Assembly: GCA_034430895.1 (NCBI GenBank)
Contig: DAOUDW010000035.1
Coordinates: 121,189 to 185,188 of the forward strand
Reading direction: 5' to 3'
Length of the DNA stretch: 64,000 bases
Origin: Anaerolineales bacterium
GTDB taxonomy: Bacteria > Chloroflexota > Anaerolineae > Anaerolineales > E44-bin32
In this document: positions 3,939 through 57,096 of the stretch, piece after piece
Layout: every line of letters begins with the position of its first letter
Numbering within the stretch: the stretch's first letter is position 1
Notes under the pieces: generated by a model
Told to the model about the DNA's origin: nothing
Databases searched by the model: none
What the model saw: only the letters and a program-made list of their open reading frames with translations
Translations under genes and position numbers: made by a program

Positions 3939-5207
3939 ATGTCCACGATTACTGCAGTAAAAGGCACCCGGGATTTTTACCCGTCCGACATGGCATTCCA
4001 TGATTGGCTATTTGATACCATTCGTTCAGTATCGGAACAATTTGGCTATCAAAAGTATGATGGCCCATACCTTGAAAGAATGGCATTGTATGCTGCGAAG
4101 TCCGGTGAAGAGTTAGTCAACGAACAATCATTCGTATTTGAAGATCGCGGCGGCGATATGGTTGCATTACGTCCGGAACTGACCCCCACGCTTGCTCGCA
4201 TGGTTGCGGCTCGCAGCCGCCAATTAATCCAGCCGATTCGATGGTGGTCTTTTGGACCTTTTTGGCGCTACGAACGTCCCCAGAAAGGGCGTACGCGTGA
4301 GTTCTTCCAATGGAACGTCGATCTTCTCGGCATCGTCTCTCCTCAGGCAGATGCCGAACTCGCCGCCATCTCGGCCACGTTCTTTCGAGCGGTCGGTCTA
4401 TCTCCTCAAATGATACGCTTGCAAATCAACAATCGTCGTCTTATGGACGCAAAATTGGAGTCGGTCGGGATCGCTATGGAGAATCGCCCTGCCGTCTTTC
4501 GTCTCATCGATCGCAAGGAGAAAATGGACGATCGCGCCTGGCAAGATAAAGCGAAATCGATTGGTATCGACAAGGATCAATTTTCCGTTTTGTGCAACAT
4601 TCTCGCAGACAAAGATGCATGGAAGGATTTTGATGAACTCCGCGAGTTTTTCGATTCTGTCGAAATGATGGGCGTGGCCGATTACTTCGAATATGATCCC
4701 AAGGTCATTCGCGGATTGGATTACTACACAGGAACCGTGTTTGAAGCACGGGACGCATCCGGCGAAGAGCGTGCGATTCTGGGTGGCGGTCGCTACGACA
4801 ACCTCGTTGCCGATGTGGGCGGCGATCCGTTACCTGGTGTCGGTTTTGCCATGGGCGACGTCGTCCTCGGTATCGTGCTTGAGAAGCACGGTTGCAAACC
4901 TTCGTTGCAGCCCAATCCATCAGATGTTTTTCTCCCCCTCTTTGACGAAACAACGCTTTCCGATAGCCTGCGTCTCGCTTCCGAACTCCGCAGCGCAGGT
5001 TTGCGTGTGGAATGGTACCCGCAACCCGACAAGCTTAAAAAGCAGTTTAAATATGCAGACCGCAATGACATTCCAATTGCCGTTGTGTTGGGGCCAGACG
5101 AGATTCAATCCGAATCGATCACGATCAAAGATTTACGCACGAAAACACAGGATTCTTTTCCTCGTGCAGAAATGATAAATAAAATTCGCGAGCTCCTGGA
5201 ATCCTAA
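3939..5207 (+). CDS. hisS: Histidine--tRNA ligase
   Basis: 'TAVKGTRDFYP', 'ALRPELTPTLARMVA' and 'RWWSFGPFWRYERPQKGRTREFFQWNVDLLG' are class II HisRS motifs. The start is set at ATG 3939, preceded by GGGAGA. The GTG at 3891 in the ORF track would include the leader hairpin. Confidence 0.95.
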   Translation: MSTITAVKGTRDFYPSDMAFHDWLFDTIRSVSEQFGYQKYDGPYLERMALYAAKSGEELVNEQSFVFEDRGGDMVALRPELTPTLARMVAARSRQLIQPIRWWSFGPFWRYERPQKGRTREFFQWNVDLLGIVSPQADAELAAISATFFRAVGLSPQMIRLQINNRRLMDAKLESVGIAMENRPAVFRLIDRKEKMDDRAWQDKAKSIGIDKDQFSVLCNILADKDAWKDFDELREFFDSVEMMGVADYFEYDPKVIRGLDYYTGTVFEARDASGEERAILGGGRYDNLVADVGGDPLPGVGFAMGDVVLGIVLEKHGCKPSLQPNPSDVFLPLFDETTLSDSLRLASELRSAGLRVEWYPQPDKLKKQFKYADRNDIPIAVVLGPDEIQSESITIKDLRTKTQDSFPRAEMINKIRELLES

Positions 5208-5270
5208 TCCATATCCAAATGATAGCTGTATGTAAGTTGTCTCAAGATGTTCCTATGATAGGATAAATTA

Positions 5271-5408
5271 AGTCGCCGCCTGGACGGATCGGGAGAGAAC
5301 AGTATATTAAACGGAGAGCGACTAGAGCCGAACTACATTGTAGCCATCGGCCTGCGCCTCAAAAATTTAGAGATGCTCTCCTCGATCCCAAGGCGGCGAT
5401 TTTTTTTC
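5271..5408 (+). ncRNA. Candidate rod-shaped small RNA, or an unusually elaborate hisS terminator
   Basis: A promoter-like TTGTCT-16-TGATAGGAT lies at 5237-5264. The paired helices are 5273-5281:5391-5399, 5286-5291:5383-5388, 5292-5297:5376-5381, 5314-5320:5355-5360 and 5327-5331:5347-5351. An AU-rich internal loop sits between the third and fourth helices, and eight T follow at 5400-5407. Confidence 0.35.
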
Positions 5409-5479
5409 TTAATAGAACTCTAATCCCTTGTATAGATTTCCTCGAAATATTCAATTCGTGTTAGAATGTGTCCGATCTT

Positions 5480-5553
5480 GGTGCCCGTAGCTCAACCGGT
5501 AGAGCGCCGCACTGTGGATGCGGTCGTTGAGGGTTCAAGTCCCTTCGGGCACC
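5480..5553 (+). tRNA. tRNA-His (anticodon GTG) with genomically encoded G-1
   Basis: Hand-folded cloverleaf with acceptor GTGCCCG/CGGGCAC, anticodon loop CTGTGGA and T-arm GAGGG-TTCAAGT-CCCTT. The extra 5' G at 5480 sits opposite discriminator C. CCA is not fully encoded. The extended -10 motif TGTTAGAAT lies upstream at 5459-5467. Confidence 0.93.
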
Positions 5554-7365: not shown

Positions 7366-8466
7366 ATGAAAGAGTCATCACGGATTAATCGCAGAGACAT
7401 GATGAAACTTGCTGGCCTTGGCGTTGCCAGTCTTGCTTTGCGTCATGAAACCTTCAGAACCTATTTACCCCCACTCCTTCCCGAATTCCCTGCATCCGAA
7501 CGACTCGGGAGGGTTTTTGTTGGAAAGACAGAAATCAAAACGAAGCCCGATAACAACAGCTCGACTGTGGAAGTCCTCTACGAAGACGGCGTCGTTCCCT
7601 GGCTGCGCGAGATTCCTGGACAACCTGTCTCAATCTTCGCTCCGAACGTCCGCTGGGTTGAGACGGATCGAGGTTACATTTGGTCGCCGCATCTCCAGCC
7701 CGTTAAAAACCTACCCCAAGAACCCATTCTTGAGTTGCCTTCTACGAGTTTGGGCGAAGGAATGTGGGCAGAGGTAACTGTTCCATACGTTGATATAGCA
7801 CTCGACAATCCACCCGCACGATCGCCCTGGCTTAAAGTTGCGCCGCATCCCCGCTTGTACTACAGTCAAATTTTATGGATCGACCAGATTGATACGGATT
7901 CAGCTGGTCGCTCGTATTACCGTGTTAATGAACGTTATGGATCTGGCGATATTCTATGGGCCGCATCGGAAGCTTTTCGTCCATTACAGGACGAAGATTT
8001 TTCACCAATCCACCCTTATGTTGAGGATAAGCGTGTAGCAATCAATCTCACCTATCAAACACTCTCTTGCTATGAAGGCAATGACGAAGTCTATTTCTGT
8101 CGGATTTCTTCGGGTGGGAAGTATGATGCACAGGGAAGTCCCAACGATAAATGGTCTACACCCTTAGGCCCTCACCCCATCTGGCGAAAGTTGACTTCGC
8201 TCCATATGAGTGGTGGAACAATGGTCGGCGGGTACGATCTGCCTGGCATTGGATGGACGATGTTGTTCGCTGCTAATGGGGTGGCGATTCATTCTACATT
8301 TTGGCACAACAATTTCGGCGTTCCGATGTCCCACGGTTGCGTCAACGCTCTTCCGGAAGATGCGCAGTGGATTTTTCGTTGGACTACGCCTCATGTAACC
8401 GCAGATCCTGGAGACGTTACCGTCGGAATGCCCGGGGGAACGCAGATATCGATTGAAGAGGCGTAA
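7366..8466 (+). CDS. L,D-transpeptidase (YkuD domain) with a Tat-type signal
   Basis: 'SRINRRDMMKLAGLGVASLAL' is a twin-arginine leader. 'GVAIHSTFWHNNFGVPMSHGCVNA' contains the YkuD catalytic H...SHGC motif. The start is set at ATG 7366. Confidence 0.85.
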   Translation: MKESSRINRRDMMKLAGLGVASLALRHETFRTYLPPLLPEFPASERLGRVFVGKTEIKTKPDNNSSTVEVLYEDGVVPWLREIPGQPVSIFAPNVRWVETDRGYIWSPHLQPVKNLPQEPILELPSTSLGEGMWAEVTVPYVDIALDNPPARSPWLKVAPHPRLYYSQILWIDQIDTDSAGRSYYRVNERYGSGDILWAASEAFRPLQDEDFSPIHPYVEDKRVAINLTYQTLSCYEGNDEVYFCRISSGGKYDAQGSPNDKWSTPLGPHPIWRKLTSLHMSGGTMVGGYDLPGIGWTMLFAANGVAIHSTFWHNNFGVPMSHGCVNALPEDAQWIFRWTTPHVTADPGDVTVGMPGGTQISIEEA

Positions 8467-8505: not shown

Positions 8506-9495
8506 ATGGATTTAACGAGTAAAGACATAGCTACTGCGCGAGCGCATCCAAATATTGCTTTGATCAAATACTGGGGCAACCTCGATAATGAACTACGCCT
8601 ACCAGCCAACAGTTCACTTTCGTTTTCTCTGGGCACCCTCGAGACCCAAACGACAGTTCAGTTCGATGAGCAATTGACTTCGGATCGGGTCGTCATCGAT
8701 GATGTTCCCGCTAGCGATTCAGCCAGCCAGCGTGTTTGTTTGCATCTTGACCGTATTCGCCGTTTGGCAGACATCAAGACGTATGCTTATGTGGAAAGCA
8801 ACAGTAACTTTCCCTCCGGTGCAGGTATTGCCTCATCTGCATCTGCCTTTGCCGCCCTCACGCTTGCTGCTTGCTCGGCTTGCAACCTTGAAATCAATTC
8901 GCGCGCACTTTCTCGCCTGGCTCGTCAAGGCTCCGGGTCTGCAAGTCGCTCAATATTTGGCGGATTCGTTATTTGGTACGCCGGCAAGACGGATGCGGAA
9001 TCCTACGCAGAATCCATCGCGGATAAGTATCATTGGCCGATTGTCGACTTAATCACCATTGTCAATACCAGCCATAAGACTGTAGGCTCCTCCGAAGGAC
9101 ATCTGCTGGCTGAAACCAGCCCCCTGCAGATCATCCGCGTTGAGGATACTCCCCGTCGGCTTGAGATTTGCCAGCAAGCGATCATGGACCGCGATTTCAA
9201 CGCATTGGCTTCGATCGTCGAGCTGGACAGCAACATGATGCATGCCGTGATGATGACATCGAAACCTGCGCTGCTGTATTGGTCTGCGGCGACGATCGAG
9301 ATCATGAAAACCGTCTCCCGCTTGCGTCACGAAGGCCTCGATATTTGTTACACCATTGATGCCGGCCCAAACGTGCATTGTATCTGCACGCGCGAACATG
9401 CCCATTCTGCTCATGATGTCCTCAAGAAAATCCCTGGCGTCGTCGACATTCTCGAATCACCACCCGGTGATGGTGCCGTTACGCTCGATCGCTAA
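8506..9495 (+). CDS. GHMP-family mevalonate (di)phosphate decarboxylase
   Basis: Matching motifs are 'HPNIALIKYWGN', 'FPSGAGIASSASAFAAL', 'QGSGSASRSIFGGF' and 'YTIDAGPNVH'. The substrate (diphospho- versus monophospho-mevalonate) cannot be decided by eye. Confidence 0.88.
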   Translation: MDLTSKDIATARAHPNIALIKYWGNLDNELRLPANSSLSFSLGTLETQTTVQFDEQLTSDRVVIDDVPASDSASQRVCLHLDRIRRLADIKTYAYVESNSNFPSGAGIASSASAFAALTLAACSACNLEINSRALSRLARQGSGSASRSIFGGFVIWYAGKTDAESYAESIADKYHWPIVDLITIVNTSHKTVGSSEGHLLAETSPLQIIRVEDTPRRLEICQQAIMDRDFNALASIVELDSNMMHAVMMTSKPALLYWSAATIEIMKTVSRLRHEGLDICYTIDAGPNVHCICTREHAHSAHDVLKKIPGVVDILESPPGDGAVTLDR

Positions 9496-20006: not shown

Positions 20007-20058
20007 TCTTCCATTTCACACGAGTCAGACATGCATATCTCGAAATATTAATAATAAA

Positions 20059-20090
20059 AACAGGGCGGCTTATTACGCGCCCTGTTTTCT
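20059..20090. terminator. Bidirectional intrinsic terminator
   Basis: AACAGGGCG ... CGCCCTGTT stem with an A-run upstream and TTTT downstream. Confidence 0.65.
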
Positions 20091-20195
20091 CATCCTATAG
20101 TGGTGTTGTGTTATTCAACCATGCGATCAATCGCCAATAAAAACTGCCGCAAATCGTGCCATTTCAACTTCATTGAACAGTTCAGTTGTTTCTTC

Positions 20196-21866
20196 TTATA
20201 CACGGCTTAACCCACCATCCAATTCAGACATCGCCAGAGCCAACGAATCCGCGACATCACCGGCGATTACTCCGGCCAAAGAGCCTACCATTTCCGCTGC
20301 AATTTCCCCGGCTCTGCCGTGCAAATACGCGCCCAACACTGCAGCCTCATATGGACCCACACCTTGTGCACGCAGGCCTGTAATAACACCAGCCAAGACA
20401 TCACCGGTTCCGGCCCGTGCAAGCGCTGGCGTAGCGAACGGTAAAACGGCACATTTACCATCAGGTGCCGCAATTACGGTAAATGCTCCCTTAAGCACTA
20501 CGATGTGTCCCCACTCATTTGCGGCTTGCTGCGCGTTTTTTACCCGATCGTTTTGAATATCATCCTTGTCAATACCTGTCATCTCAGACATCTCACCTGG
20601 ATGAGGCGTCAATATGGTCAACGGTGGAAGGAAGGATGGCCAATTGGAAATATTGGTTAATAACCTTAAACCATCCGCATCGATGACGCATGGAATTCCC
20701 ACCTTTGGCTTCTTAGCTTTCTCCCCATCCGTAGGCACCAAACCCATTTTCCCACGCGTACTCAAACGCTCGCCGCCCAATAATTGCTGCAGAAAACTCG
20801 CGGTGGGTGGTTCTTGCCCAAAACCTGGACCTATAAGCATCGCCTGTGAATTTTCCATTTCTTTAATCAACACGTCTGTCGCATTTTCAGCGATGACGCC
20901 CAACTCATCCGGCAGCACGATCCAAGTTGCTTCTGGCACTTGTGGCGCCAACATTACCTGAACCGGTGCAGGCACAGCAAGCGTAACCAATCCGGCACCG
21001 ACGCGGTAAGCCCCTAAAGCAGCAAGCGCTGCCGCACCGGGGTAATTTACCGATCCGGCGACAATCAATGCCCGTCCGAATGTTCCCTTGTGTGCATTTT
21101 TCGGTCGTGCAGGGACCCAGGCTCTTACCGTATCTGCTGTTGCAAGTTCAAGCTCCACGCTGGTTATCTCCTTTAAATCTTCTTTGATCCCAATGTCGCC
21201 AATAAATAATTTCCCGACTTTGTCTGCGCCCGGAAAAATGAATAGGCCCGGTTTCGCTGCGGCCAACGTAACGGTCAGGTCACACAGTAGTGCTTCATCT
21301 GCCACTTCACCGTGATCGCAATCCAGCCCTGAAGGACAATCCACGCCCACGATTATGGGTATTCTATCTCTGGCCTGCAACGCCTGATTGGCTTCACCCA
21401 GTATACTTTTCGCATTTCCGCGTAACGGAAGTTTGAACCCGGTTCCGAGAACTGCATCGATGACAAAATCCGCCTCACCTATCCATTCCCGCAGTTTTTT
21501 TCGTTTTGGGTCCTCTGCTGCGACGACAATCTCACATCCATCTTCCGTCAGCCGCTTCAGGTTTGTATCTCCTGCCGCGCGTTGTTTCGACAAATAAGCA
21601 CGAATTGTTGCTCCAGCATTATTTAAATAATGCCCCACAACCAACCCGTCACCACCATTGTTTCCGGAACCGACCAGAATTACAACGCTTTTTCCCTCCA
21701 TCCTGGTCCAATGCACAAGGATTGTATGCGCAATGGAACAACCAGCATTTTCCATCATTTGCGCGTAACTCAATCCCGAAGCGTCCGCGGCTTTCTCTAT
21801 TACTTGCATTTGTTCGACAGTTACGATTTTGGTCAAAACGGTTCTCACTTTCTTGTGCAGCATCAA
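20196..21866 (-). CDS. nnr: Bifunctional NAD(P)H-hydrate repair enzyme (epimerase/ADP-dependent dehydratase)
   Basis: The YjeF_N motif 'GSGNNGGDGLVVG' and the C-terminal carbohydrate-kinase motif 'GTGDVLAGVITGL'. The start overlaps the aor stop by 4 nt. Confidence 0.92.
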   Translation of the reverse strand: MMLHKKVRTVLTKIVTVEQMQVIEKAADASGLSYAQMMENAGCSIAHTILVHWTRMEGKSVVILVGSGNNGGDGLVVGHYLNNAGATIRAYLSKQRAAGDTNLKRLTEDGCEIVVAAEDPKRKKLREWIGEADFVIDAVLGTGFKLPLRGNAKSILGEANQALQARDRIPIIVGVDCPSGLDCDHGEVADEALLCDLTVTLAAAKPGLFIFPGADKVGKLFIGDIGIKEDLKEITSVELELATADTVRAWVPARPKNAHKGTFGRALIVAGSVNYPGAAALAALGAYRVGAGLVTLAVPAPVQVMLAPQVPEATWIVLPDELGVIAENATDVLIKEMENSQAMLIGPGFGQEPPTASFLQQLLGGERLSTRGKMGLVPTDGEKAKKPKVGIPCVIDADGLRLLTNISNWPSFLPPLTILTPHPGEMSEMTGIDKDDIQNDRVKNAQQAANEWGHIVVLKGAFTVIAAPDGKCAVLPFATPALARAGTGDVLAGVITGLRAQGVGPYEAAVLGAYLHGRAGEIAAEMVGSLAGVIAGDVADSLALAMSELDGGLSRV

Positions 21867-23689
21867 ACATCTTCGATAAGTTCAGCGATGTTCAATTCTT
21901 CCAATTTTTTCGGACCAGGAATGCCGGTTTCGACATCCCAGCCGCGCGCCTGGTAGTAAGTTTCCAACATGTCTTCGATCGGTATACGATACCCTGCCGC
22001 GCCACCTTCTTTTAGCGGCTCTAGTAATGCTTTGGGTAACCGATCGTCCGCTCTTTTCATTCCCATGCGAATATTTGCAATCCGTTTAATATTCCAGCCA
22101 CGCTCTCCTACACGCATCAATTCATCCAGATCGTAATGGAAACCAGTCACAGCATTAACCAATTCAAGAATCGTTTTCGGAGGCACATTTGCAAAATTGC
22201 ACATGATGAGTGAGTTAAAGATGGTACGCCAGTCTTGATGCCTGGCTACATTTCTAACCTTCTCTACACCCGCATGTCTTTCAAAGAATTCCACTCCGAT
22301 CTCTTCTACGCTTTGTCCTATTTCTACCATGAAGTAATCGCTTTGATTATGACAAGCCCCGCGAGGCGATGTCGCGTATACCACGCCCATACCAGACAAT
22401 GCGCGCGGGTCATGATAGGGAATTTCCAACCCTTTAACATGCACGGCCATGTCGCTGGCGTCGAATCGATCAGCCACTTTCACTGCCCCCTCAGACAGAA
22501 TCGCGCCGAATCCTTCTCTTCTTGCAATTCCATGGACCAGTTTCTCGACAACTTCGTAGTTCCCCCAAGTCAATACATCCCCATCCGTGTCTTCTTTTGT
22601 AAGAATACCCTTCTCAAAAAGCAAGAAAGCAAGCCCAATGGTATTCGAAACAGAAATCGTATCCATTCCGTATCGATCACACAGATCTCCCAGCAGCGTA
22701 ACCGAAGATAAATCATCGATCCCGAGATTCGGCCCAAAACCGACGATTGTCTCGTATTCTGGCCCTTTTCGATCTTTGCCATCTTTAAGCCGCACTACCC
22801 GTCCACATGCAATGACGCAACCATGACAGGCGCTCACGGAAGTAAGTATCGTCTCGGCCATCGCTGCACCAGTCATACGATCAATTCCTTCAGCAATCCC
22901 CTTCGAGAAATACTTCTTGGGCATGTCCCCCAAATAATCCAGGTAGTCCCCGGCGCTTGACGACCCGTACTGGCGCAGTGCATCGGACAGGCTGTCTGTG
23001 CGTAGATCTTTATTCGATTCCGTGCGAATCTTTGTAAACCGATCCGGATGCACGATCAAAGGTTCCTGGCTGCCTCTCACCGCGATTGCTTTTAATCGCT
23101 TGGCACCCATTACCGCACCCATCCCGGTTCTTCCGGCTGCTCTTCCGCGATCGCAGATTATCGAAGCAAAGTTAAGTTGATTCTCTCCAGCAAGCCCGAT
23201 ACTGGCTACACGAATTAATCTGTCCGCATGCGCCTCACGTATTGCAGCCTGCGTTTCATAGGGGTCACACTTTCCCCAGTATGATTCCGCATCACGAATT
23301 TCTATTTTTCCTTCCCGCACCCAGATATACACCGGACGGGAAGCTTGCCCGGTAATCCAAATGCCGTCGTATCCCGTTTTACGCATCTCGGGTCCGAAAA
23401 AACCCCCAACGTGGGATTCGCCCCATATCCCCGTCGCAGGCGATTTCCCGCAGATAACAAAGCGCCCAACAGCAGGGCCTTTCGTTCCCGTCAGAGGGCC
23501 TGTGAGGAATAGGAGCGGTGCATTCGCTGAAAGCGGATCAAGGTCTTCATCCAAATACGGCAGCAAGAGATGGGCAGCGAGGCTCGCACCGCCCAATGTC
23601 TCCCGCAGCATCATCGCATCGACCTGAATCACATGGGAATCCCCCGTTCCGATGTCGATGTGCAAAATTCGAAAAACGAATTCAGCCAT
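21863..23689 (-). CDS. aor: Aldehyde:ferredoxin oxidoreductase (tungstopterin AOR family)
   Basis: 608 aa with 'LGGASLAAHLL', 'GPEYETIVGFGPNLG' and 'LCDRYGMDTIS', an N-terminal AFOR_N-like domain, and C-terminal Cys residues typical of the AOR family. Confidence 0.9.
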   Translation of the reverse strand: MAEFVFRILHIDIGTGDSHVIQVDAMMLRETLGGASLAAHLLLPYLDEDLDPLSANAPLLFLTGPLTGTKGPAVGRFVICGKSPATGIWGESHVGGFFGPEMRKTGYDGIWITGQASRPVYIWVREGKIEIRDAESYWGKCDPYETQAAIREAHADRLIRVASIGLAGENQLNFASIICDRGRAAGRTGMGAVMGAKRLKAIAVRGSQEPLIVHPDRFTKIRTESNKDLRTDSLSDALRQYGSSSAGDYLDYLGDMPKKYFSKGIAEGIDRMTGAAMAETILTSVSACHGCVIACGRVVRLKDGKDRKGPEYETIVGFGPNLGIDDLSSVTLLGDLCDRYGMDTISVSNTIGLAFLLFEKGILTKEDTDGDVLTWGNYEVVEKLVHGIARREGFGAILSEGAVKVADRFDASDMAVHVKGLEIPYHDPRALSGMGVVYATSPRGACHNQSDYFMVEIGQSVEEIGVEFFERHAGVEKVRNVARHQDWRTIFNSLIMCNFANVPPKTILELVNAVTGFHYDLDELMRVGERGWNIKRIANIRMGMKRADDRLPKALLEPLKEGGAAGYRIPIEDMLETYYQARGWDVETGIPGPKKLEELNIAELIEDV

Positions 23690-23714
23690 GTTGAATGTCC
23701 AAATCTGCTTCTAC

Positions 23715-25349
23715 TTAGCGGTTTTCTTTTACTTCGATCCTGCTCATGGCGTATTCGGCCAATGCCGTGATGGTTAGACTGGGGTTGACGCCAGGATTTG
23801 CAGGGATGATCGATCCGTCTACGACATACAATCCTGGATAGTTAAACGCCTCACAATCGATATTGATCACGCCTTCGCCCTCATCCTTTCCGAAAACGCA
23901 TCCTCCCAACATGTGTGCCGTCATAGGGACGTTGATCAAACCTTGCGTTATTGCACCGCTTGGATGTCCACCAATTTTGTTGGCCAAAGAACGTGCAACT
24001 TTCTCTCCCAGATCGATTTTTACCGGCACGGTCTTTTCCGGATCCTGATCCCCCACGAGGCCTTTCCTAAAGAACGCGAAGGGATTTCTCCCCAACCGCA
24101 GGCTTAGTACATTATCCTTCGTTTGCATGACCATGATCGCAATCCCGCGTCTTGTCAAACCCGGCACTATTCGCACGTTAAGGAAATCGATCGGATGACG
24201 GCATATCTCGATCAGATTCCGCCACACACGCACCACAATTGATTTGCTTGGCTCAATTAACGGAGTTGCTAATACGCGAAACAGCATCGACGATCGCTCC
24301 TCCAGACGAACCGGTTCGATTTGCGTTTCTTCGTCTGCTTTGAAAATCGAGGTGATCGAAAGTCCTTCTGAATGGTCCTCCGCTGTTTTCCGACGAAAAG
24401 CGCCGAAAAAAGTCTCGCTGTTCGTACGAACCATGTTTCCGAGTCGAGAAGACAAAAGGGGAAGTGTCTTGGTTTCATCACGGCATCGCAACAACAGTTC
24501 GACCGTCCCTAATGTGCCTGCAGAAACGACAACGTTCCTCGTTAGAACACTTTTATTCTTTCCACCAATGAAACTCGTTGAAGGTCGATACTTCACGATA
24601 TATCGTGCATCCGCGAATGATTCGCCGTTTGTTGGTTCGATGCCTACGACTTTTGCTTCCTCCCTGATTTCAACACCCAACCGTTCTGCGAAGTACAAGT
24701 AGTTCTTCGGCAAGGTATTTTTGGCATCATAACGACAACCGACGATACAAGCGCCACAATGAATGCATCCGATTCTCGGCGGACCTTCACCACCAAAATA
24801 TGGATCCGGGCTTTCCTCCCCAGGTTTCCCGAAATAAATCCCCACATCTGTCGTCCGAAAACTATCTTCACGTCCTAGCTCAACCGCAATTTGTCGCAAG
24901 GCTTCATCTGCAGGCCAAATCTCGGGATTTCTTTCCACACCCAACATCTTCCGCGCGTTAGCATAGTGAGGTTTTAATTTATTCGCCCAATCACCCAAAT
25001 GCCGCCATGATTCTGCGGTAAAAAAGCTCTGATCCGGCTCCATGAGAACTGCTGCATAAACCAGGCTGCCTCCGCCTACACCGCTGGAGTGATATAGAAA
25101 ATATCCCTTGGAGAGATTAAGTTGAAGTATTCCGTAGCAACGTATGGCAGGCATCCAAAGATAGCGTCGAATATCCCAATTTGTCTTTGGAAGCTCGTGA
25201 TCCTCGTAACGCTTCCCTCGCTCCAGTATAAGTACGCGATAACCTTTCTCGGCTAATCGCAAAGCGGATACGCTGCCCCCGAATCCAGAACCCACTATCA
25301 CAAAATCATAGACGTATTGATTCTCACGATGCGGTTTGGACTTATCCAT
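23715..25349 (-). CDS. GMC-family FAD oxidoreductase (cholesterol-oxidase/alcohol-dehydrogenase-like)
   Basis: The FAD fold 'DFVIVGSGFGGSVSALRLAEKGYRVLILERG' and the C-terminal 'HMLGGC' and 'GLYVVDGSIIPANPGVNP' motifs. The start is set at ATG 25349, with GAGAGG upstream. It contains a CxxCxxCxxxC motif at 24735-24767. Confidence 0.85.
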   Translation of the reverse strand: MDKSKPHRENQYVYDFVIVGSGFGGSVSALRLAEKGYRVLILERGKRYEDHELPKTNWDIRRYLWMPAIRCYGILQLNLSKGYFLYHSSGVGGGSLVYAAVLMEPDQSFFTAESWRHLGDWANKLKPHYANARKMLGVERNPEIWPADEALRQIAVELGREDSFRTTDVGIYFGKPGEESPDPYFGGEGPPRIGCIHCGACIVGCRYDAKNTLPKNYLYFAERLGVEIREEAKVVGIEPTNGESFADARYIVKYRPSTSFIGGKNKSVLTRNVVVSAGTLGTVELLLRCRDETKTLPLLSSRLGNMVRTNSETFFGAFRRKTAEDHSEGLSITSIFKADEETQIEPVRLEERSSMLFRVLATPLIEPSKSIVVRVWRNLIEICRHPIDFLNVRIVPGLTRRGIAIMVMQTKDNVLSLRLGRNPFAFFRKGLVGDQDPEKTVPVKIDLGEKVARSLANKIGGHPSGAITQGLINVPMTAHMLGGCVFGKDEGEGVINIDCEAFNYPGLYVVDGSIIPANPGVNPSLTITALAEYAMSRIEVKENR

Positions 25350-25401
25350 GAGGACCTCTCGTTCTGGCATGAAGTTTTTGTTTCATGAATACATCGATTG
25401 G

Positions 25402-25833
25402 TTAGACTTGCCCTTCGATTGCGATTTCCACATTGCGACAGCAACGCACAAAATCCAATACGGTGGGCACATTGCGCAGCATATACCCGAGATTGCCTTT
25501 CACTCGCATTCTGCGGGTCAACATTGCCTGCATCGGATCCAAATCACCCTGGATAATACTCATAATGTTCTTCATGGATGTTCTCAGTACAAAGGAAGCA
25601 TTCGGAATTTCTTCGCGCGCAGGGTCAACAACACAAACCTCGCGACAACTCCCATGCCATAGATCGAGGTAAAATGCGATTGGTATTCTTGGATCGTCCT
25701 CTTTTGGATTCGGTTCGATAACAATGACAATTTCCCCTTCCCAATTTTTTGCCACTTCTGCATAACGGGAATCCGAATTGAGTTCATCTTTAAGCGCCAA
25801 CAGCCATTCTTCGCTCGGGAATGGATAAGCCAT
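25402..25833 (-). CDS. SCP2 (sterol carrier protein 2) domain protein
   Basis: 'IIQGDLDPMQAMLTRRMRVKGNLGYMLR' matches the SCP2 C-terminal helix and KxxGN motif. 143 aa. Confidence 0.75.
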   Translation of the reverse strand: MAYPFPSEEWLLALKDELNSDSRYAEVAKNWEGEIVIVIEPNPKEDDPRIPIAFYLDLWHGSCREVCVVDPAREEIPNASFVLRTSMKNIMSIIQGDLDPMQAMLTRRMRVKGNLGYMLRNVPTVLDFVRCCRNVEIAIEGQV

Positions 25834-25900
25834 ATTGCTTTCCTCGTAAATCGATTTTGGCGATTATGATCCAATCCTCGTAAAGAGTCAAAGATTTACA

Positions 25901-26531: not shown

Positions 26532-27533
26532 TCACAGCACAGTCGGCAACGCCTTCAATTCGATGGTAAGTCGATCAAAATAACTTTCTGCTGGTAACGC
26601 CGAATCCCCATAATTGAGATCAACGATGCGAGCTTCAACAGTCAAGGATGCCGTCTGCAATGTGACCACATCGCCGCCTCTCGCCTCTATGGGGTCCCCT
26701 TTCGCAGCAAGCTTCGCACGGGTTTCTCCATCTTCGAATGTGTAGCGACTCATAATGACCTTGGTTACCGTTTGAATGTCGTTCTTGTCAAAAAGCCAGA
26801 TCTCAAACGCATTTACCTTCTTTGGTTCTCCAACGCCGATAACATCGCCGATGCCTACTCCACACTCGCCGAGGAAATCCCCGGAAGCGCTTTCGATGCT
26901 GAAGGAGTCATCATACAGATCATCCCCCAATGCATACGTCGTTCTGAATGTAGCCAGCGGCTGATCGTCTTGCAGGGGAACTTCTTGATCGTACATCTGC
27001 GCCGGCGCCAATTCTTCCTCGTATTCGTAATACTCTTCCTGTCCTCCGGCATCCACTCTTCGCCTTAACACCAGTGCGACGATGAGAAGCAGACCGAGCA
27101 GCAAAGTTGCTCCACAGACGGGCAGTAATAATCTAGATAGAGAAAACCCTTCTTCGTGACCTGATTCTGATGCAGTCGCGCTGGTATCTTCCGCCTCCAG
27201 ATAGGTCTCGACGATCTCTTTAAACCTTTGAATATTACTCGGGCTCACCATTCCGGGATCCCCGCCCACTTCTGCCAGAATTTTGTCTTTATCCGATCCG
27301 ATAGAATCATACCGTTGGATCGCGAGGTCCACATCTTCGTTCAATGCAAACGAGTCAATCGTCATCCTCAGATATTCCACACGAAGATCACGACGCAATT
27401 GGTTCACTTCCCCGTCCACCCATTCGACAGGACTAATAACCCATGCATAAAACACACCCAGCACAATACCCACGACCAAGGTTAAGAGTGCGATCATGAC
27501 ATTCCGATTTAGCTTGTTCATAATTTCATTCAT
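26532..27533 (-). CDS. Two-TM membrane protein, unknown function
   Basis: 333-aa ORF with TM helices near residues 15-35 and about 140-160, an acidic Tyr/Glu-rich linker ('EEYYEYEEEL') and a beta-rich C-terminal domain. No motif I recognise. Confidence 0.55.
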   Translation of the reverse strand: MNEIMNKLNRNVMIALLTLVVGIVLGVFYAWVISPVEWVDGEVNQLRRDLRVEYLRMTIDSFALNEDVDLAIQRYDSIGSDKDKILAEVGGDPGMVSPSNIQRFKEIVETYLEAEDTSATASESGHEEGFSLSRLLLPVCGATLLLGLLLIVALVLRRRVDAGGQEEYYEYEEELAPAQMYDQEVPLQDDQPLATFRTTYALGDDLYDDSFSIESASGDFLGECGVGIGDVIGVGEPKKVNAFEIWLFDKNDIQTVTKVIMSRYTFEDGETRAKLAAKGDPIEARGGDVVTLQTASLTVEARIVDLNYGDSALPAESYFDRLTIELKALPTVL

Positions 27534-27637: not shown

Positions 27638-29998
27638 TTATACCGGATCGCTTTCTTCGTTCTGCAAAATAGACTGAGCGAATTGCTCATCACATTCTGT
27701 ACAGCGCGCTTTCTGACGATTCTCGACAATCAACAATCCCCCACAACTGGGGCATGGAGAAGCGAGCGGCCGTTTCCATGATGTAAATTCGCATTCAGGA
27801 TAATTCTCACATCCATAAAACGGTCTGCCTTTTCGTGTTCGGCGAGCAACTAGGTCGCCTCCACATTTTGGGCATTTCACACCAATTTTCTCAAGCCATG
27901 GTTCTGTATGTCGACATTCGGGAAAATTGGAACAACCGATGAATTTTCCATATCGACCATGCCGCAGCACAAGCGGGCTGCCGCATTCTGGGCATTCACG
28001 CCCAATTTCTTCTGGTTCGGCCTTCATCTCTGGCATCGCGTCTTCTGCAATTTTAAGTTGTTCTGCAAACGGCTCGTAAAAATCACGGATGACTGCAACC
28101 CAATCGCGCTTTCCCCCTGCGATTTCATCCAATTGCTCTTCCATGCGTGCCGTAAAACCGGGATCAACGATGTTCGGGAAGTGGGCAACGATCAGGTCGT
28201 TCACAATTTCGCCAATTTCCGTGGTAATCAAGCGCCTATTCTGGCGTTCGATATATCCTCGCTGACGCAGTGTTGAAATAATGGGCGCGTATGTGGATGG
28301 CCTGCCGATCCCATTTTCTTCCAACGCGCGCACCAGGGATGCATCCGAGAACCGCGGCGGTGGCTGCGTGAAATGCTGATCAGTATTGATATCCCTGAGG
28401 AGAACAAAATCTCCCTTTTGAAGATCCGGAAGCTGAGTAAGCTGGGCTTTTAATTCTTGATCTAATCCGCCTTTAACATTGGCTCTTTCTTCCTCGCCAT
28501 TTCGATCGGCTTTATACACACTCAGGAAACCATCAAAACGAAGGCTGGAAGCCGTAACCCGGAATAAATACTCGTCGTTCACAGACTGACCCGTGACTTC
28601 AATTGTCAAAGTGTCATAAATCGCGGGCTTCATTTGAGAAGCCACAAATCTCTGCCAAATTAAGTTGTATAACTTATATTGATTCGCTGATAAATAGGGC
28701 TTTAATGATTTTGGTGTACGCATCACCGAGGTCGGTCGAATGGCTTCGTGCGCCTCCTGCGCCAAACGGCCACGAGTTCGATAGATAGGAGGCTGTTCAG
28801 GTAAATACGTCTCCCCATATTGATCGGTGATGAGTTTTCGCGCTTCCATCTGCGCTTGTTTTGACACCTGCGTAGAATCGGTACGCATATACGTTATAAG
28901 ACCCACGCGTTCACCTTCGCCGAAATCAATGCCTTCATACAATTGCTGCGCGATGACCATCGTGCGGCGTGCGGTGTAGCTGAACCGCTGTGAAGCTGTT
29001 TGCTGCATTGTTGAAGTCGTAAATGGTGCGGATGGCTTGCGTGTACGTTGCCCTCGGCGTACACCCGAAATCTGGTAGTCTGCACTTCGCAGGTCAGATA
29101 CGAGCGATTCTACTTCCTCGTTTGATTTTAATTCTGGCTTTTCCCCATTATGTTTAACGAGCCGGGCCATAAAGGCTGGCGGTTTTTCTTCGTTTAAGAA
29201 TTCCGCATCAATCGTCCAATATTCCTGGGGAACGAAATCTGCAATTTCGCGTTCTCTTTCAACGATTAGCCGCAATGCAACCGACTGCACGCGGCCTGCA
29301 GAAAGTCTTCCACGGACTTTTTCCCACAGCAAAGGACTTAGATTGTAGCCTACCAACCGATCTAGAATACGACGGGCCTGCTGCGCGTCGACCAAATCCA
29401 TGGCGATATCTCTAGGTTCCTCAAAAGCATGTTGGATGGCGGGTTTCGTGATTTCATTGAAGACCACACGTTTGGCGATATCCCGGTCGATCTCTGCGGC
29501 TTCCAACAAGTGCCAGGCAATGGCTTCCCCTTCACGATCGTGATCCGTCGCCAGATAAACCTGTGTTGTCTCTGCGGCTGCTGATTTGAGTTCCTTTACG
29601 ATTTCCCGTTTCTCATTGGGTACACGGTATTTCGGCTGAAAATCGTTTTCGACATCAACGGATATTTGCGATCGCAGCAAATCCCGTACGTGTCCGATTG
29701 ATGCCATAACCTTGAATTCTTTATCGAGGAAACGAGAAATTGTACGCGCCTTTGCCGGGGATTCGACGATCACCAGCTTTCCGCTGCGTTTCTTGCGTCG
29801 CTTCTTTCGACGCATCTTTGTTTCCGACACTTCCGGCGGCGTTAAGCCTTCATGTGCCGCAGTCTTCCCCATCCGATAGAGACCTGTACCGCAAACACCG
29901 CAGACGCCTCTCGTCGCCGGCGTTCCCGTTGCCGTGAACGTCGGTTCCGCCTGAGTAATTTCTCGTTTCTGTTTGCACTTTACACAATAAGCTTCCAC
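27638..29998 (-). CDS. topA: DNA topoisomerase I with an extra N-terminal zinc ribbon
   Basis: The Toprim start 'LVIVESPAKARTISRFL' and three C-terminal C4 zinc fingers. The start is set at GTG 29998, with AGGAG 7 nt upstream and just after the manC-like stop. The N-terminal 75 aa carry CVKC...CGVC plus the basic tract 'RRKKRRKKR'. Confidence 0.93.
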   Translation of the reverse strand: MEAYCVKCKQKREITQAEPTFTATGTPATRGVCGVCGTGLYRMGKTAAHEGLTPPEVSETKMRRKKRRKKRSGKLVIVESPAKARTISRFLDKEFKVMASIGHVRDLLRSQISVDVENDFQPKYRVPNEKREIVKELKSAAAETTQVYLATDHDREGEAIAWHLLEAAEIDRDIAKRVVFNEITKPAIQHAFEEPRDIAMDLVDAQQARRILDRLVGYNLSPLLWEKVRGRLSAGRVQSVALRLIVEREREIADFVPQEYWTIDAEFLNEEKPPAFMARLVKHNGEKPELKSNEEVESLVSDLRSADYQISGVRRGQRTRKPSAPFTTSTMQQTASQRFSYTARRTMVIAQQLYEGIDFGEGERVGLITYMRTDSTQVSKQAQMEARKLITDQYGETYLPEQPPIYRTRGRLAQEAHEAIRPTSVMRTPKSLKPYLSANQYKLYNLIWQRFVASQMKPAIYDTLTIEVTGQSVNDEYLFRVTASSLRFDGFLSVYKADRNGEEERANVKGGLDQELKAQLTQLPDLQKGDFVLLRDINTDQHFTQPPPRFSDASLVRALEENGIGRPSTYAPIISTLRQRGYIERQNRRLITTEIGEIVNDLIVAHFPNIVDPGFTARMEEQLDEIAGGKRDWVAVIRDFYEPFAEQLKIAEDAMPEMKAEPEEIGRECPECGSPLVLRHGRYGKFIGCSNFPECRHTEPWLEKIGVKCPKCGGDLVARRTRKGRPFYGCENYPECEFTSWKRPLASPCPSCGGLLIVENRQKARCTECDEQFAQSILQNEESDPV

Positions 29999-30008
29999 AC
30001 ACACACTC

Positions 30009-31109
30009 CTATAAGTAATTCTCCAACCCCTTCTCTTGCAGCAAACGCACGACTTCTCGTACGCCTTCCGCCTTTTCTTTGGGGCATACCAATAATACGT
30101 CTTCCATATCCACCACAATCAAATCATTCGTTCCCAGCGCAACAATCATTCGATTTGTGGCTGCATTTTCATCCTGATACAGCAAGGTGTTCTCCGCATC
30201 GACAATCAAACTGTTCTTTGCCTGGATCATATTGCCATGTTGATCGATCTCTTTGACCTCGAACATACGCGCCCAACCGCCAACATCACACCATCCCAGA
30301 TCGTCAGCAGGTATGACGCTCACGTTCCTGGCACCTTCCATGATGCCAAAATCAACCGTCTGGCTTTCTAATCTACACCATACGCTTTCGATGGTTTCGG
30401 CTTCTGCATCCGTGCCCAATGCACGATCGATTTCCTGCAGCCCTTGAAATAATTTAGGCATTTGTCTTTCAATTTCTTTCAGTATGCTTTCGGCCTTCCA
30501 CACAAACATACCTGAATTCCAGGCATACTCCCCACTGGCGATATATTCTTGCGCCAGTTCAAAATCGGGCTTTTCTTTGAAGGATTGAACACAGTAGGCC
30601 TTATAGCCTTTGAATACGCCACGTTGTTCACCTCGATGAATATAACCGTATCCGGTATCCGGATAACGAGGTGTAATACCCAATGTCACCAGATCTCCCT
30701 CCAGCGCCAATTCCCTTGCTGCTTGCAGGAGTTCCTGGAACTTATACTCATCCGCAATATAGTGGTCCGCCGTAAGGATGGCGATCACGCAATCGGGATT
30801 TTGTCTCTGGAGTTTAATAGCTGCCAGCCCAACAACGGATGCCGTCCCTCTTGGGCTGGGTTCTAGAATGAAATGATCGACTGGCAGCGATTCCACCTGT
30901 CTTGCCAATACTTTCGCCTGATCATCAACCGTAACTACAAAAATCCGATCGTGATCCATCACAGGCCCCAACCGTTTTACCGAGACTTCAAAGAGAGTCT
31001 GTTCTCCAAAAATCCGCAGCATCTGCTTTGGCCGACTACGCCTAGACAACGGCCAAAGTCGCGTTCCCCCTCCACCTGCCATGATCACTGCAAAATAATC
31101 GTCTTCCAT
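30009..31109 (-). CDS. Mannose-1-phosphate guanylyltransferase-like nucleotidyltransferase
   Basis: 'VIMAGGGGTRLWPLSRRSRPKQ' and 'HYIADE...'. At 366 aa it has no PMI/cupin extension. Confidence 0.85.
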   Translation of the reverse strand: MEDDYFAVIMAGGGGTRLWPLSRRSRPKQMLRIFGEQTLFEVSVKRLGPVMDHDRIFVVTVDDQAKVLARQVESLPVDHFILEPSPRGTASVVGLAAIKLQRQNPDCVIAILTADHYIADEYKFQELLQAARELALEGDLVTLGITPRYPDTGYGYIHRGEQRGVFKGYKAYCVQSFKEKPDFELAQEYIASGEYAWNSGMFVWKAESILKEIERQMPKLFQGLQEIDRALGTDAEAETIESVWCRLESQTVDFGIMEGARNVSVIPADDLGWCDVGGWARMFEVKEIDQHGNMIQAKNSLIVDAENTLLYQDENAATNRMIVALGTNDLIVVDMEDVLLVCPKEKAEGVREVVRLLQEKGLENYL

Positions 31110-32375: not shown

Positions 32376-32449
32376 CGGGGATGACGGGATTCGAACCCGC
32401 GATCTCTGCCTTGACAGGGCAGCGTGTTAAGCCGCTACACTACACCCCC
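32376..32449 (-). tRNA. tRNA-Asp (anticodon GTC)
   Basis: Hand-folded 74-nt cloverleaf on the minus strand. It has acceptor GGGGGTG/CATCCCC, anticodon loop CTGTCAA, T-arm GCGGG-TTCGAAT-CCCGT and discriminator G. Confidence 0.93.
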
Positions 32450-41619: not shown

Positions 41620-42849
41620 ATGTTTGGAAACCGCGTTCGTCTTCAATTTTCAGAATCATGGCAGCGCACGCTGTATATCACTTTCATCGCCCAGATTCTT
41701 ACGGCGATCGGATTTTCTAGTATCTTTCCTTTCTTGCCGCTGTACGTTGAGTCGCTGGGTTCTTCATCCCAGCTAAGCATCGAATTCCTTGCGGGTTTGG
41801 TGTACTCTGCCCAAGCTTTCTGCATGATGCTTGCTTCCCCCATTTGGGGCGCGATTGCGGATCGCTATGGAAGGAAACTCATGGTGCAGCGCGCCTGTTT
41901 TGGCGGTGTTGCGGTCATTTTTCTCATGGCCTTTGTACGTTCCGCCGAGGAGTTGGTGTTTTTGCGTGCCATACAAGGGCTGATGACCGGTTCTGTTGCA
42001 GCATCCAGTGCGTTAATTGCCGCAGAAGCCCCTCGCACGAGAACCGGATACGCCCTGGGATTGCTGCAGACGGGTCTCGGAATTGGCATCGCTTTGGGAC
42101 CACTCATCGGCGGCGCCATTGCAGACGCTTTCGGATACAGCGCCGCATTTTATATCACCGCGGCTCTCCTGCTCATCGCGGGGATCATGGTCCACTTCGG
42201 TGTAGAAGAAACCTACGTTCCAACGACTGCGCCAAGGATCGATCTGCGTGGGTTCTTCTCCGACTGGCGCCACATCTTCCAATCCCCCGGCGTTACGACT
42301 ACGTATGCTTTGGATATGATCTCGCAGCTTGCGCGCATGATGGTCATACCGATCTTGCCCATTCTGATCCAATCCTTCATCACCGACCTCGGTACCGTCA
42401 ACACTATCACCGGCGTCGTTTTCGGTGTGTATTCGGCAACAATGACCTTGAGTGCAATCTACCTGGGCAAACTGGGAGATCGCATCGGCCACCGCATGAT
42501 CTTGATCGTTAGTTTGATCACGCTTGCGATTTTTTACTTTCCGCAAGCTTACGTGGATGAAGCCTGGCAGATTCTAATTTTTCAATCTTTATCGGGTATT
42601 TCCATGGGGGGCATACTGCCATCGATCGGCGCCTTGCTGGCTAAACTCACCGTTCAGGGAGAGGAAGGAACGGTATACGGGTTGTCGAATTCGCTGCGCG
42701 CCGGCGCACGCTCCGTAGCTCCCCTCCTCGGCGCCGGAATCGCAACCTGGTTTAGCAATCAGGCCACGTTCGTTTTTGCCGCCGGGTTTTATCTACTGGC
42801 GGGAATCCTGGCTGCCATCAGGCTGCCTAGGCTATCCAATAATTCTTAG
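41620..42849 (+). CDS. MFS transporter
   Basis: About 12 TM segments and 'GAIADRYGRKLM' (MFS motif A, GxxxDRxGRR-like). Confidence 0.85.
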   Translation: MFGNRVRLQFSESWQRTLYITFIAQILTAIGFSSIFPFLPLYVESLGSSSQLSIEFLAGLVYSAQAFCMMLASPIWGAIADRYGRKLMVQRACFGGVAVIFLMAFVRSAEELVFLRAIQGLMTGSVAASSALIAAEAPRTRTGYALGLLQTGLGIGIALGPLIGGAIADAFGYSAAFYITAALLLIAGIMVHFGVEETYVPTTAPRIDLRGFFSDWRHIFQSPGVTTTYALDMISQLARMMVIPILPILIQSFITDLGTVNTITGVVFGVYSATMTLSAIYLGKLGDRIGHRMILIVSLITLAIFYFPQAYVDEAWQILIFQSLSGISMGGILPSIGALLAKLTVQGEEGTVYGLSNSLRAGARSVAPLLGAGIATWFSNQATFVFAAGFYLLAGILAAIRLPRLSNNS

Positions 42850-42868
42850 TATTCGATTACACAATGTA

Positions 42869-44176: not shown

Positions 44177-44377
44177 ACATCGCCTCCTGGATCGTGTATT
44201 GATTATACTTTCCAGCCTGTAACTCGCCACATAGCTTCGCACTTCATTCATTTTGATACGCTGATTATCAAGCGAAACGAACGTATCCGTGATACGATTT
44301 AACAACATCCAACGATTTCACTCTTCCATTTGATGTTTCTCTATCCGTCATGATGTATTCCATTTACAGAGGATCCT

Positions 44378-46354: not shown

Positions 46355-46381
46355 TACTCCATAAATTGTCCGGCTGTATGG

Positions 46382-48988: not shown

Positions 48989-49048
48989 GACAGTTGCATT
49001 CTAAGCGCTGCACGTTCAAACTTCAAGCGTCTATGATATACTCGCCGC

Positions 49049-50002: not shown

Positions 50003-50004
50003 AC

Positions 50005-53314: not shown

Positions 53315-53438
53315 GTGCCAATCTGATATTCAGTGTGGTAAACTGGATCAACATCGTTCCTGTGCTGTGATTAATGGGATTATGGCTTGGCTTATTGCCC
53401 TCTCACAGATAGATACTTCGGTCAGATAGGCAAACGAC

Positions 53439-57024: not shown

Positions 57025-57096
57025 GCGGGTGTCGCCAAGTGGTAAGGCAGTAGCTTCCCAAGCTACCATTCGTGGGTTCGAATCCCATCACCCGCT
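57025..57096 (+). tRNA. tRNA-Gly (anticodon CCC)
   Basis: Hand-folded 72-nt cloverleaf with acceptor GCGGGTG/CACCCGC, anticodon loop TTCCCAA, T-arm GTGGG-TTCGAAT-CCCAT and discriminator T. It is followed by CTTTTTT. Confidence 0.93.

Follow-up and report, generated by a model that had tools for sequence, protein, structure and literature searches.

Conserved SCP2, GMC Flavoprotein, Aldehyde:Ferredoxin Oxidoreductase and Nnr Genes in Anaerolineales: a Modular Operon with a Possible Role in Oxygen-Independent Alcohol Oxidation

Organization of the locus

A 64,000-nucleotide (nt) stretch of the Anaerolineales bacterium assembly GCA_034430895.1 (contig DAOUDW010000035.1, positions 121,189 to 185,188 of the forward strand; hereafter, the window) contains four adjacent genes for an SCP2-fold protein, a flavoprotein of the GMC family, an aldehyde:ferredoxin oxidoreductase (AOR), and the NAD(P)HX repair enzyme Nnr. 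All four open reading frames (ORFs) lie on the minus strand; in that order, the first two gaps are 31 and 25 nt, and the last two genes overlap by 4 nt. The same ORFs had been reported in a preliminary description of this DNA, and Pfam and NCBIfam agree with the family that it assigned to each product. The genes and the signals predicted at their borders are listed below.

25863 to 25891, minus strand: sigma70-like promoter TTGACT-17-CATAAT, predicted by consensus scan (10 of 12 matches)
25402 to 25833, minus strand: stand-alone, soluble SCP2-fold protein of 143 amino acids (aa), Thermus TT1886/TTHA0401 type (PF02036)
23715 to 25370, minus strand: cytoplasmic GMC-family flavin adenine dinucleotide (FAD) flavoprotein of 551 aa, GMC_oxred_N (PF00732) plus GMC_oxred_C (PF05199)
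21863 to 23689, minus strand: AOR of the AOR clade proper, 608 aa, AFOR_N plus AFOR_C
20196 to 21866, minus strand: bifunctional Nnr, NAD(P)HX epimerase plus ADP-dependent dehydratase, YjeF_N plus Carb_kinase
20050 to 20094, minus strand: intrinsic terminator, a hairpin ACAGGGCG...CGCCCTGT followed by a U-run, predicted from sequence and RNA folding

These four genes are predicted to form a single transcription unit. The promoter-like sequence lies inside a 156-nt divergent intergenic region common to the SCP2 gene and greA, a GAGGA ribosome-binding site precedes the SCP2 start codon (ATG at 25833), and the terminator hairpin falls ~100 nt past the Nnr stop codon (ΔG of -21 kcal/mol; z = -5.56; 0 of 200 shuffled sequences equally stable). 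The GMC gene may alternatively start at an in-frame ATG at 25349 that has GAGAGG ahead of it, in which case the SCP2-GMC gap would be 52 nt. For Nnr, the most likely start is the ATG at 21863 (555 aa), which is the second codon of the ORF opening with TTG at 21866 (556 aa); a gene caller picks the equivalent ATG in a 91%-identical relative. The stop codon of AOR and the start codon of Nnr overlap in the sequence TGATG, through which translation of Nnr is predicted to be coupled to that of AOR. Control of the operon by a Moco/Tuco riboswitch or another RNA element was considered and rejected, as no Rfam element was found in or near the cluster, either at the gathering threshold or at an E of ≤1.

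Sequence features of the four proteins

The AOR matches AFOR_N (PF02730; 240 bits) and AFOR_C (PF01314; 408 bits) over its full length in a three-domain architecture, and its residues 7 to 604 align with residues 7 to 604 of the Pyrococcus furiosus enzyme (1aor; 434 bits). The [4Fe-4S] ligands Cys288, Cys291, Cys295, and Cys497 (C288, C291, C295, and C494 in P. furiosus) and the catalytic residues Glu311 and His447 (Glu313 and His448) occur in 34 of 34 orthologues, and Asp338 of the first pterin motif occurs in 33 of 34. With its full-length match to 1aor and its conserved cluster ligands and catalytic Glu/His, the enzyme appears to be intact. The same full-length homology, ligands, Glu/His pair, and first Asp are found in bacterial AORs such as AorB of Aromatoleum (8c0z). 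In the second pterin motif, by contrast, where the P. furiosus and bacterial enzymes have Asp, the window AOR has Asn492, and its orthologues are mostly Asn as well (27 Asn and 7 Asp among 34); this substitution, the only departure among the key residues, appears to be a trait of the clade. The genetic setting also differs, in that known AORs are encoded with AorA/AorC-type electron-transfer subunits or a cmo gene, whereas the window AOR is encoded with SCP2 and Nnr.

The SCP2-fold protein (PF02036; E = 6e-10; 39.7 bits) has the subfamily motifs and fold of the Thermus thermophilus SCP2 protein (TT1886/TTHA0401; 1wfr and 2cx7). A profile search against the PDB returns 1wfr/2cx7 with an E of 2.5e-18, the motifs WEG and LDLWHGxCR are held in common, and an AlphaFold2 model with a predicted local distance difference test score (pLDDT) of 93.8 fits 2cx7 closely (Foldseek TM of 0.79 to 0.87; root mean square deviation of 2.0 Å). 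UbiJ is also among the structural matches, and in the UbiJ type there is already a case of a small SCP2 protein serving enzymes with hydrophobic substrates. Both the SCP2 and the GMC protein are predicted from sequence to lack signal peptides and transmembrane segments. Nnr scores above the cutoffs for both of its halves (TIGR00197, 130 bits against 88.6; TIGR00196, 199.7 bits against 129.85).

The GMC protein displays the N-terminal GxGxxG FAD-binding fold (GSGFGG at residues 27 to 32) and a catalytic His486/Asn529 pair that is present in 83 of 83 homologues and aligns with H447 and N485 of Streptomyces ChoA. It further contains a cysteine motif, C202-x2-C205-x2-C208-x3-C212, that is invariant in 82 to 83 of the 83 homologues and likewise in a smaller alignment of 22. 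ChoA (1b4v) does not have this motif, and its matches to the window protein are patchy (83 bits). Among NCBIfam models, the protein scores best with that for the cholesterol oxidase ChoxAB (NF058674), reaching 528 bits where the cutoff is 850 bits. The founding enzyme of that family, the Acinetobacter protein on which the cholesterol oxidase label is based, is reported to have very little such activity (0.054 U/mg; PMC8409315). There is no specific support for the label "cholesterol-oxidase-like" or for the steroid substrate entertained in the preliminary description.

The cysteine motif (C-x2-C-G-x-C-x2-G-C) has the exact spacing, and roughly the position along the sequence, of one in the acetol dehydrogenase (AceDH) of Methylacidiphilum, whose GMC alpha subunit binds a [Cu-4Fe-4S] cluster through C187-x2-C190-x2-C193-x3-C197, 10.9 Å away from the flavin (bioRxiv 10.64898/2026.06.11.731722). 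In the FAD-dependent glucose dehydrogenase (FAD-GDH) of Burkholderia, the equivalent loop carries a 3Fe-4S cluster 12 to 13 Å from the FAD (PMC6719666). The C202/C205/C208/C212 loop is thus a predicted Fe-S electron-relay site. The known Fe-S GMC dehydrogenases, namely, AceDH GmcA (Methylacidiphilum), the FAD-GDH alpha subunit (Burkholderia cepacia), and the large subunit of fructose dehydrogenase (FDH; Gluconobacter), resemble the window protein in their GMC fold, His/Asn pair, and Cys-rich loop near residue 200, and they are among its top structural matches: for the model of the window protein (predicted TM score of 0.81), Foldseek ties the Fe-S GMC dehydrogenases 8jej and 6a2u with cholesterol oxidase. 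Sequence identity to these enzymes is only ~18%. They are also periplasmic proteins, exported with a small "hitchhiker" subunit bearing a twin-arginine translocation (Tat) signal, and they give electrons to cytochrome c or to high-potential acceptors, cytochrome c being the partner in FAD-GDH and FDH.

Because the invariant cysteine motif is of the Fe-S type seen in AceDH and FAD-GDH, the GMC protein is probably an O2-independent dehydrogenase rather than an oxidase, with its electrons passing to a protein or quinone acceptor. The preliminary description had found it unfamiliar that a GMC flavoenzyme should be paired with AOR, a family usually described as oxygen-sensitive; if the GMC enzyme is a dehydrogenase, the supposed oxygen paradox is removed.

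SCP2 and Nnr accompany AOR

In the window, the operon is flanked on one side by the genes for enolase and MnmA and a small membrane ORF and on the other by the divergent greA, a conserved membrane ORF, and topA. Gene neighborhoods were surveyed from three starting points: from SCP2, in 80 metagenome loci, 67 of which have readable downstream sequence; from AOR, in eight orthologues whose long contigs had been given independent gene calls, seven of these orthologues being at 56 to 59% identity; and from GMC, in 80 species-representative genome loci at 46 to 59% identity, with gene order compared by tblastn and neighbors counted around 75 homologues by clustering the ORFs and scanning them against Pfam.

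In 41 of the 67 readable SCP2 loci, AOR follows SCP2 directly, without GMC, at gaps of -6 to 168 nt. The next gene is GMC in 17 loci, and AOR comes next wherever the contig continues; in two loci a different single gene intervenes (in L155 it encodes an MFS transporter), and the arrangement in the remaining seven is unclear. The commonest flank of SCP2-AOR pairs, seen in 35 loci, is a divergently oriented polar-amino-acid ABC transporter, and other flanks include the TopA/GreA context of the window, PlsX, a nucleotidyltransferase/aminotransferase pair, and PurH, among others. Two loci (L137 and L094) retain the synteny of the window and have no GMC gene.

SCP2 tracks AOR and not GMC. It is present with AOR where GMC is absent, and it is missing from nearly all other GMC loci (~68 of 75, with SCP2 near GMC in 7). 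In addition, two loci with the window synteny (L060 and L061) lack both SCP2 and AOR, although the GMC gene, which sits between them in the window, is present and lies directly upstream of Nnr. The view that SCP2 is the carrier for, and dedicated partner of, the GMC enzyme, as proposed in the preliminary description, is not supported by these distributions. A role for SCP2 as a small subunit of the GMC enzyme, like GmcB or the gamma subunit of FAD-GDH, was rejected on the same absence from most GMC loci and on its lack of a Tat signal. As to variants of this region, an ORF of 75 to 99 aa with a weak match to PF14026 (SCO4226-like) lies between SCP2 and GMC in L009, L017, L035, L041, and L167 (e.g., L167:3002-3229), where the window has just the 31-nt gap, and L160 has tandem SCP2 paralogues (474-884 and 954-1337), the second of which is ~35% identical to the window SCP2.

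When AOR is the starting point, Nnr is present in 7 of the 7 orthologues at 56 to 59% identity, SCP2 lies upstream in 5 of 7, and GMC occurs in 2 of 7. The Nnr/YjeF gene is directly 3' of AOR, often overlapping it, in all seven, and the flanks differ (L161 to L167). That Nnr might be a mere passenger was considered, as L060 keeps GMC-Nnr without AOR, and was dropped on finding the AOR-Nnr pair in 7 of 7 cases across five flank contexts. In L161 (CP070708.1, a complete Anaerolineaceae genome), the gene after AOR (7853-8437) encodes the YjeF_N epimerase domain only, at 195 aa, and the dehydratase half is missing. Just 3' of Nnr, three loci (L164:9873-10670, L166:10042-10839, and L145:11740-12378) have an XdhC-family gene, of the molybdenum-cofactor insertion chaperone family, together with an SPFH/HTH gene; they belong to the lineage whose SCP2-AOR is flanked by the ABC transporter. 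The XdhC-family gene may bear on maturation of the AOR cofactor.

In a neighbor-joining tree of AOR, a clade without GMC (SCP2-AOR-Nnr or AOR-Nnr) is sister to the clade of the window, within which SCP2-GMC-AOR-Nnr has been inherited vertically down to ~53% identity. L014, which bears the SCP2-GMC-AOR trio, falls outside both clades. The operon is layered, with AOR-Nnr as its constant pair, SCP2 as a gene that often precedes AOR, and GMC as a facultative member. The old and widely conserved core is AOR-Nnr, usually with a Thermus-type SCP2-fold protein ahead of it.

Neighbors of the GMC gene

Those homologues that bear source names are from Anaerolineales or Anaerolineae. Six loci (L002, L009, L017, L035, L041, and L074) have the gene order of the window and, by tblastn, its wider TopA...enolase synteny, and SCP2-GMC-AOR(-Nnr) is found also in part of L081-L093 and in L135, L161, and L167. 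The trio is conserved down to ~53% AOR identity and recurs in the nonsyntenic L014. Recurrence of the same gene order across many genomes and metagenome contigs places the arrangement beyond chance. The preliminary description had named an adjacency confined to the source genome among the grounds for abandoning its proposal; the operon is real and conserved in many other loci, and this ground does not apply.

An aldehyde-oxidizing enzyme is the commonest functional partner of the GMC family, and it is drawn from two unrelated enzyme families. AOR is within three genes of GMC in 8 of 75 loci, and an NAD-type aldehyde dehydrogenase (ALDH) is within three genes in 9 of 75, mostly immediately 3' (11 within ±8 kb; cluster c2). 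The neighboring ALDH best matches a generic succinic-semialdehyde-dehydrogenase-type model, below its cutoff, and is uninformative on chain length. Outside the synteny of the window, L007 has the order GMC-AOR-acyl-CoA synthetase and L014 the order SCP2-GMC-(DUF559 insert)-AOR, with AORs that are only 38 to 41% identical to that of the window; a further locus, L033, pairs GMC with an acyl-CoA synthetase. In L007 and L033 alike, the top match of the synthetase is to long-chain fatty-acid-CoA ligase families, at a score under the cutoff. In L014, DUF559 and Uma2 endonuclease-like genes (L014:2533-2946 and 4795-5484) are inserted inside the cluster and right behind it.

Other neighbors of GMC include kynureninase, immediately 3' in ~9 loci (L008, L031, L046, L050, L052, L055, L057, L067, and L071), GNAT in 6 of 75 loci, and a thiolase with a 3-hydroxyacyl-CoA dehydrogenase, upstream in 6 to 13 loci. 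A neighbor-joining tree of GMC is star-like at depth, and the GMC-AOR adjacency occupies at least three separate positions in it.

Proposed pathway

Together, the four gene products probably oxidize an alcohol via the aldehyde to the acid without oxygen. For the reading in which the operon is modular, the GMC enzyme oxidizes the alcohol, AOR oxidizes the resulting aldehyde to the acid, and SCP2 acts with AOR, we estimate a probability of about 50% from the sequences and their neighborhoods. The GMC protein would serve as an O2-independent dehydrogenase converting a primary alcohol, probably hydrophobic, to an aldehyde, with two electrons leaving the FAD via a [4Fe-4S]-type cluster at C202/C205/C208/C212 to an external acceptor. 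AOR, with its pterin-bound W or Mo and its [4Fe-4S] cluster, would then convert the aldehyde to the carboxylate and reduce ferredoxin. SCP2 would partner AOR and not GMC, most plausibly by holding either the aldehyde, which would be reactive and dissolve poorly, or the acid formed from it, and Nnr would be cotranslated with AOR. We infer the substrate class, the catalytic direction, the cluster, and the role of SCP2 from the conserved residues and gene order described above, which are direct observations. Two features suggest a hydrophobic substrate, the SCP2 fold and the long-chain type of the synthetases.

The reading of alcohol to aldehyde to acid stems from the ALDH, AOR, and acyl-CoA synthetase genes that adjoin relatives of the GMC gene and from an analogy with known modules. 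In AlkJ-AlkH-AlkK (the alk operon of Pseudomonas putida), BetA-BetB, and PegA-PegC, a GMC-family O2-independent alcohol dehydrogenase adjoins an aldehyde-oxidizing enzyme, and in the alk operon an acyl-CoA synthetase also follows. L007 repeats the alk order of GMC, aldehyde oxidizer, and acyl-CoA synthetase. The window differs in that a ferredoxin-linked pterin AOR replaces the NAD(P)-dependent ALDH, the GMC protein is from a different clade that bears the cysteine motif, SCP2 and Nnr are attached, and the window has neither a hydroxylase nor an acyl-CoA synthetase; the resemblance is one of functional analogy only. Of the chain drawn in the preliminary description, in which the carrier presents an alcohol to the GMC enzyme and AOR oxidizes the product, the part that survives is oxidation of the GMC aldehyde product by a neighbor (ALDH, AOR with an acyl-CoA synthetase, or an acyl-CoA synthetase next to relatives), and the part that does not is SCP2 serving GMC.

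Several observations weigh against this pathway. It is from gene neighbors and analogy that the GMC product is taken to be an aldehyde, and about three-quarters of GMC homologues have no aldehyde-oxidizing neighbor and instead adjoin kynureninase, GNAT, thiolase, or unrelated genes. Most of the GMC-AOR and GMC-ALDH cases fall within two vertically inherited lineages and therefore represent few independent events. The closest curated family of the GMC protein is a cholesterol oxidase, albeit a weakly active one, and the product of cholesterol oxidase is a ketone, which AOR cannot use. The cluster is predicted from the cysteine motif alone, and the loop that contains the motif has a pLDDT of <50 in the GMC model. 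Neither a gene for a Tat hitchhiker subunit nor a cytochrome gene is present in the operon or its flanks. Genes for tungstate transport and pterin synthesis, which the preliminary description had suggested looking for, and genes for ferredoxin are absent among the ~50 larger window ORFs that were scanned, where the sole MoCF_biosynth match is a CinA-type protein. Finally, the polar-amino-acid ABC transporter that flanks so many SCP2-AOR pairs hints at amino-acid-derived rather than lipid aldehydes.

Alternative explanations

The best-placed competitor, to which we assign a clearly smaller share of the probability, is that the genes are cotranscribed without a shared pathway. SCP2-AOR-Nnr would be an ancestral Anaerolineae operon in which GMC landed, or was retained, at a permissive site, and the GMC enzyme would act on, for example, a 3-hydroxy-steroid/hopanoid-like secondary alcohol or a sugar, yielding a product that is not an AOR substrate. 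This account fits the facultative nature of GMC: the entire sister clade of AOR lacks the gene, as do L137 and L094, and L060 and L061 have it without AOR and SCP2. It fits, too, the unrelated neighbors of most GMC homologues. The assignment of GMC to the cholesterol oxidase family NF058674 as its best curated match would agree with a secondary alcohol, but the score is far under the cutoff and the founding enzyme has very low activity (0.054 U/mg; PMC8409315). Less easily accommodated is the inheritance of GMC and AOR as neighbors to ~53% AOR identity. The nonsyntenic L014 and L007, moreover, join a different GMC lineage to a different AOR lineage (38 to 41% identity), and another GMC clade has become fixed beside an NAD-type ALDH, which amounts to a functional replacement of the aldehyde-oxidizing partner.

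The constancy of the AOR-Nnr pair (7 of 7), with its predicted translational coupling, raises the alternative of a damage-control operon, which we consider improbable. AOR would detoxify reactive, possibly lipid-derived, aldehydes, SCP2 would sequester them, and Nnr would repair hydrated NAD(P)H, with GMC as an occasional add-on. What ties the genes together would then be common regulation, as suits housekeeping repair, and not a catabolic route. The housekeeping genes around the operon (those for enolase, MnmA, GreA, and TopA) suit such a role, as does the absence of any regulator, transporter, or beta-oxidation gene attached to the operon in the window. However, AOR is not known to have any biochemical link to NAD(P)HX and the literature searched revealed none, conservation of the pair could stem from descent inside a single class, and the GMC-ALDH, GMC-AOR-acyl-CoA synthetase, and GMC-acyl-CoA synthetase arrangements are left unexplained.

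Least probable of all is operation in the reductive direction, with AOR and reduced ferredoxin turning a carboxylic acid delivered by SCP2 as a fatty acid into an aldehyde, for use as an electron sink or in lipid synthesis, and with GMC not the upstream enzyme: AOR is reversible and reduces acids in acetogens, and PlsX, of phospholipid synthesis, adjoins SCP2-AOR in several loci, but a GMC flavoprotein is thermodynamically an alcohol oxidizer and not an aldehyde reductase, and no alcohol dehydrogenase or aldehyde reductase lies beside the pair in any surveyed locus.

Relation to known systems

Each of the four protein families is already known, as are modules of GMC with an aldehyde oxidizer. 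In the literature searched, we found no work pairing SCP2 with an AOR and no description of an SCP2-AOR(-Nnr) module, of an AOR replacing ALDH beside a GMC dehydrogenase, or of a large cytoplasmic GMC family with the AceDH-type cysteine motif in anaerobe-rich lineages. Uncultured Chloroflexota are rich in AOR-family genes, which metagenomic papers mention as a matter of routine without a defined role (e.g., PMC3971608). The neighborhoods offer three handles on AOR physiology in this major sediment and bioreactor lineage: the conserved SCP2-AOR-Nnr module, the clade with a GMC dehydrogenase fixed between SCP2 and AOR, and the sister GMC clade fixed beside an NAD-dependent ALDH.

If the proposed pathway holds, the recently recognized GMC dehydrogenases with Fe-S centers, known from the periplasm and from aerobic systems, would come to include a large family (~8,000 matches scored) that is cytoplasmic and occurs in anaerobes. 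The findings also argue against automatic annotation of this GMC family as cholesterol oxidase. A fuller version is a speculation that we regard as unlikely to be correct in all its parts. In it, a cytoplasmic GMC enzyme with its own [4Fe-4S] exit feeds an AOR assisted by a dedicated SCP2 carrier, reduced ferredoxin is drawn from lipid-type alcohols and aldehydes, and the conserved translational coupling of AOR to Nnr reflects a real functional dependence; anaerobic Chloroflexota would then oxidize alcohols to acids without oxygen in a way not described before, and their AOR would be the first to work with a carrier.

Other features of the window

The membrane ORF between topA and greA (26532-27533, minus strand) encodes 333 aa with two strongly hydrophobic segments and has no Pfam or NCBIfam match; it is kept at this position in all syntenic relatives. 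The adjacent topoisomerase I (27638-30118, minus strand) has an N-terminal DUF5679 domain before its Toprim domain. The G+C content rises to 0.55 to 0.585 at positions 42000 to 54000, compared with 0.46 to 0.51 in the first 34 kb. The sole Rfam matches in the window are tRNA genes at 5481-5553 (plus strand), 32376-32449 (minus strand), and 57025-57096 (plus strand). A diphosphomevalonate-decarboxylase-like gene at 8506-9495 (plus strand) indicates that a mevalonate-pathway gene is present in the source Chloroflexota genome.

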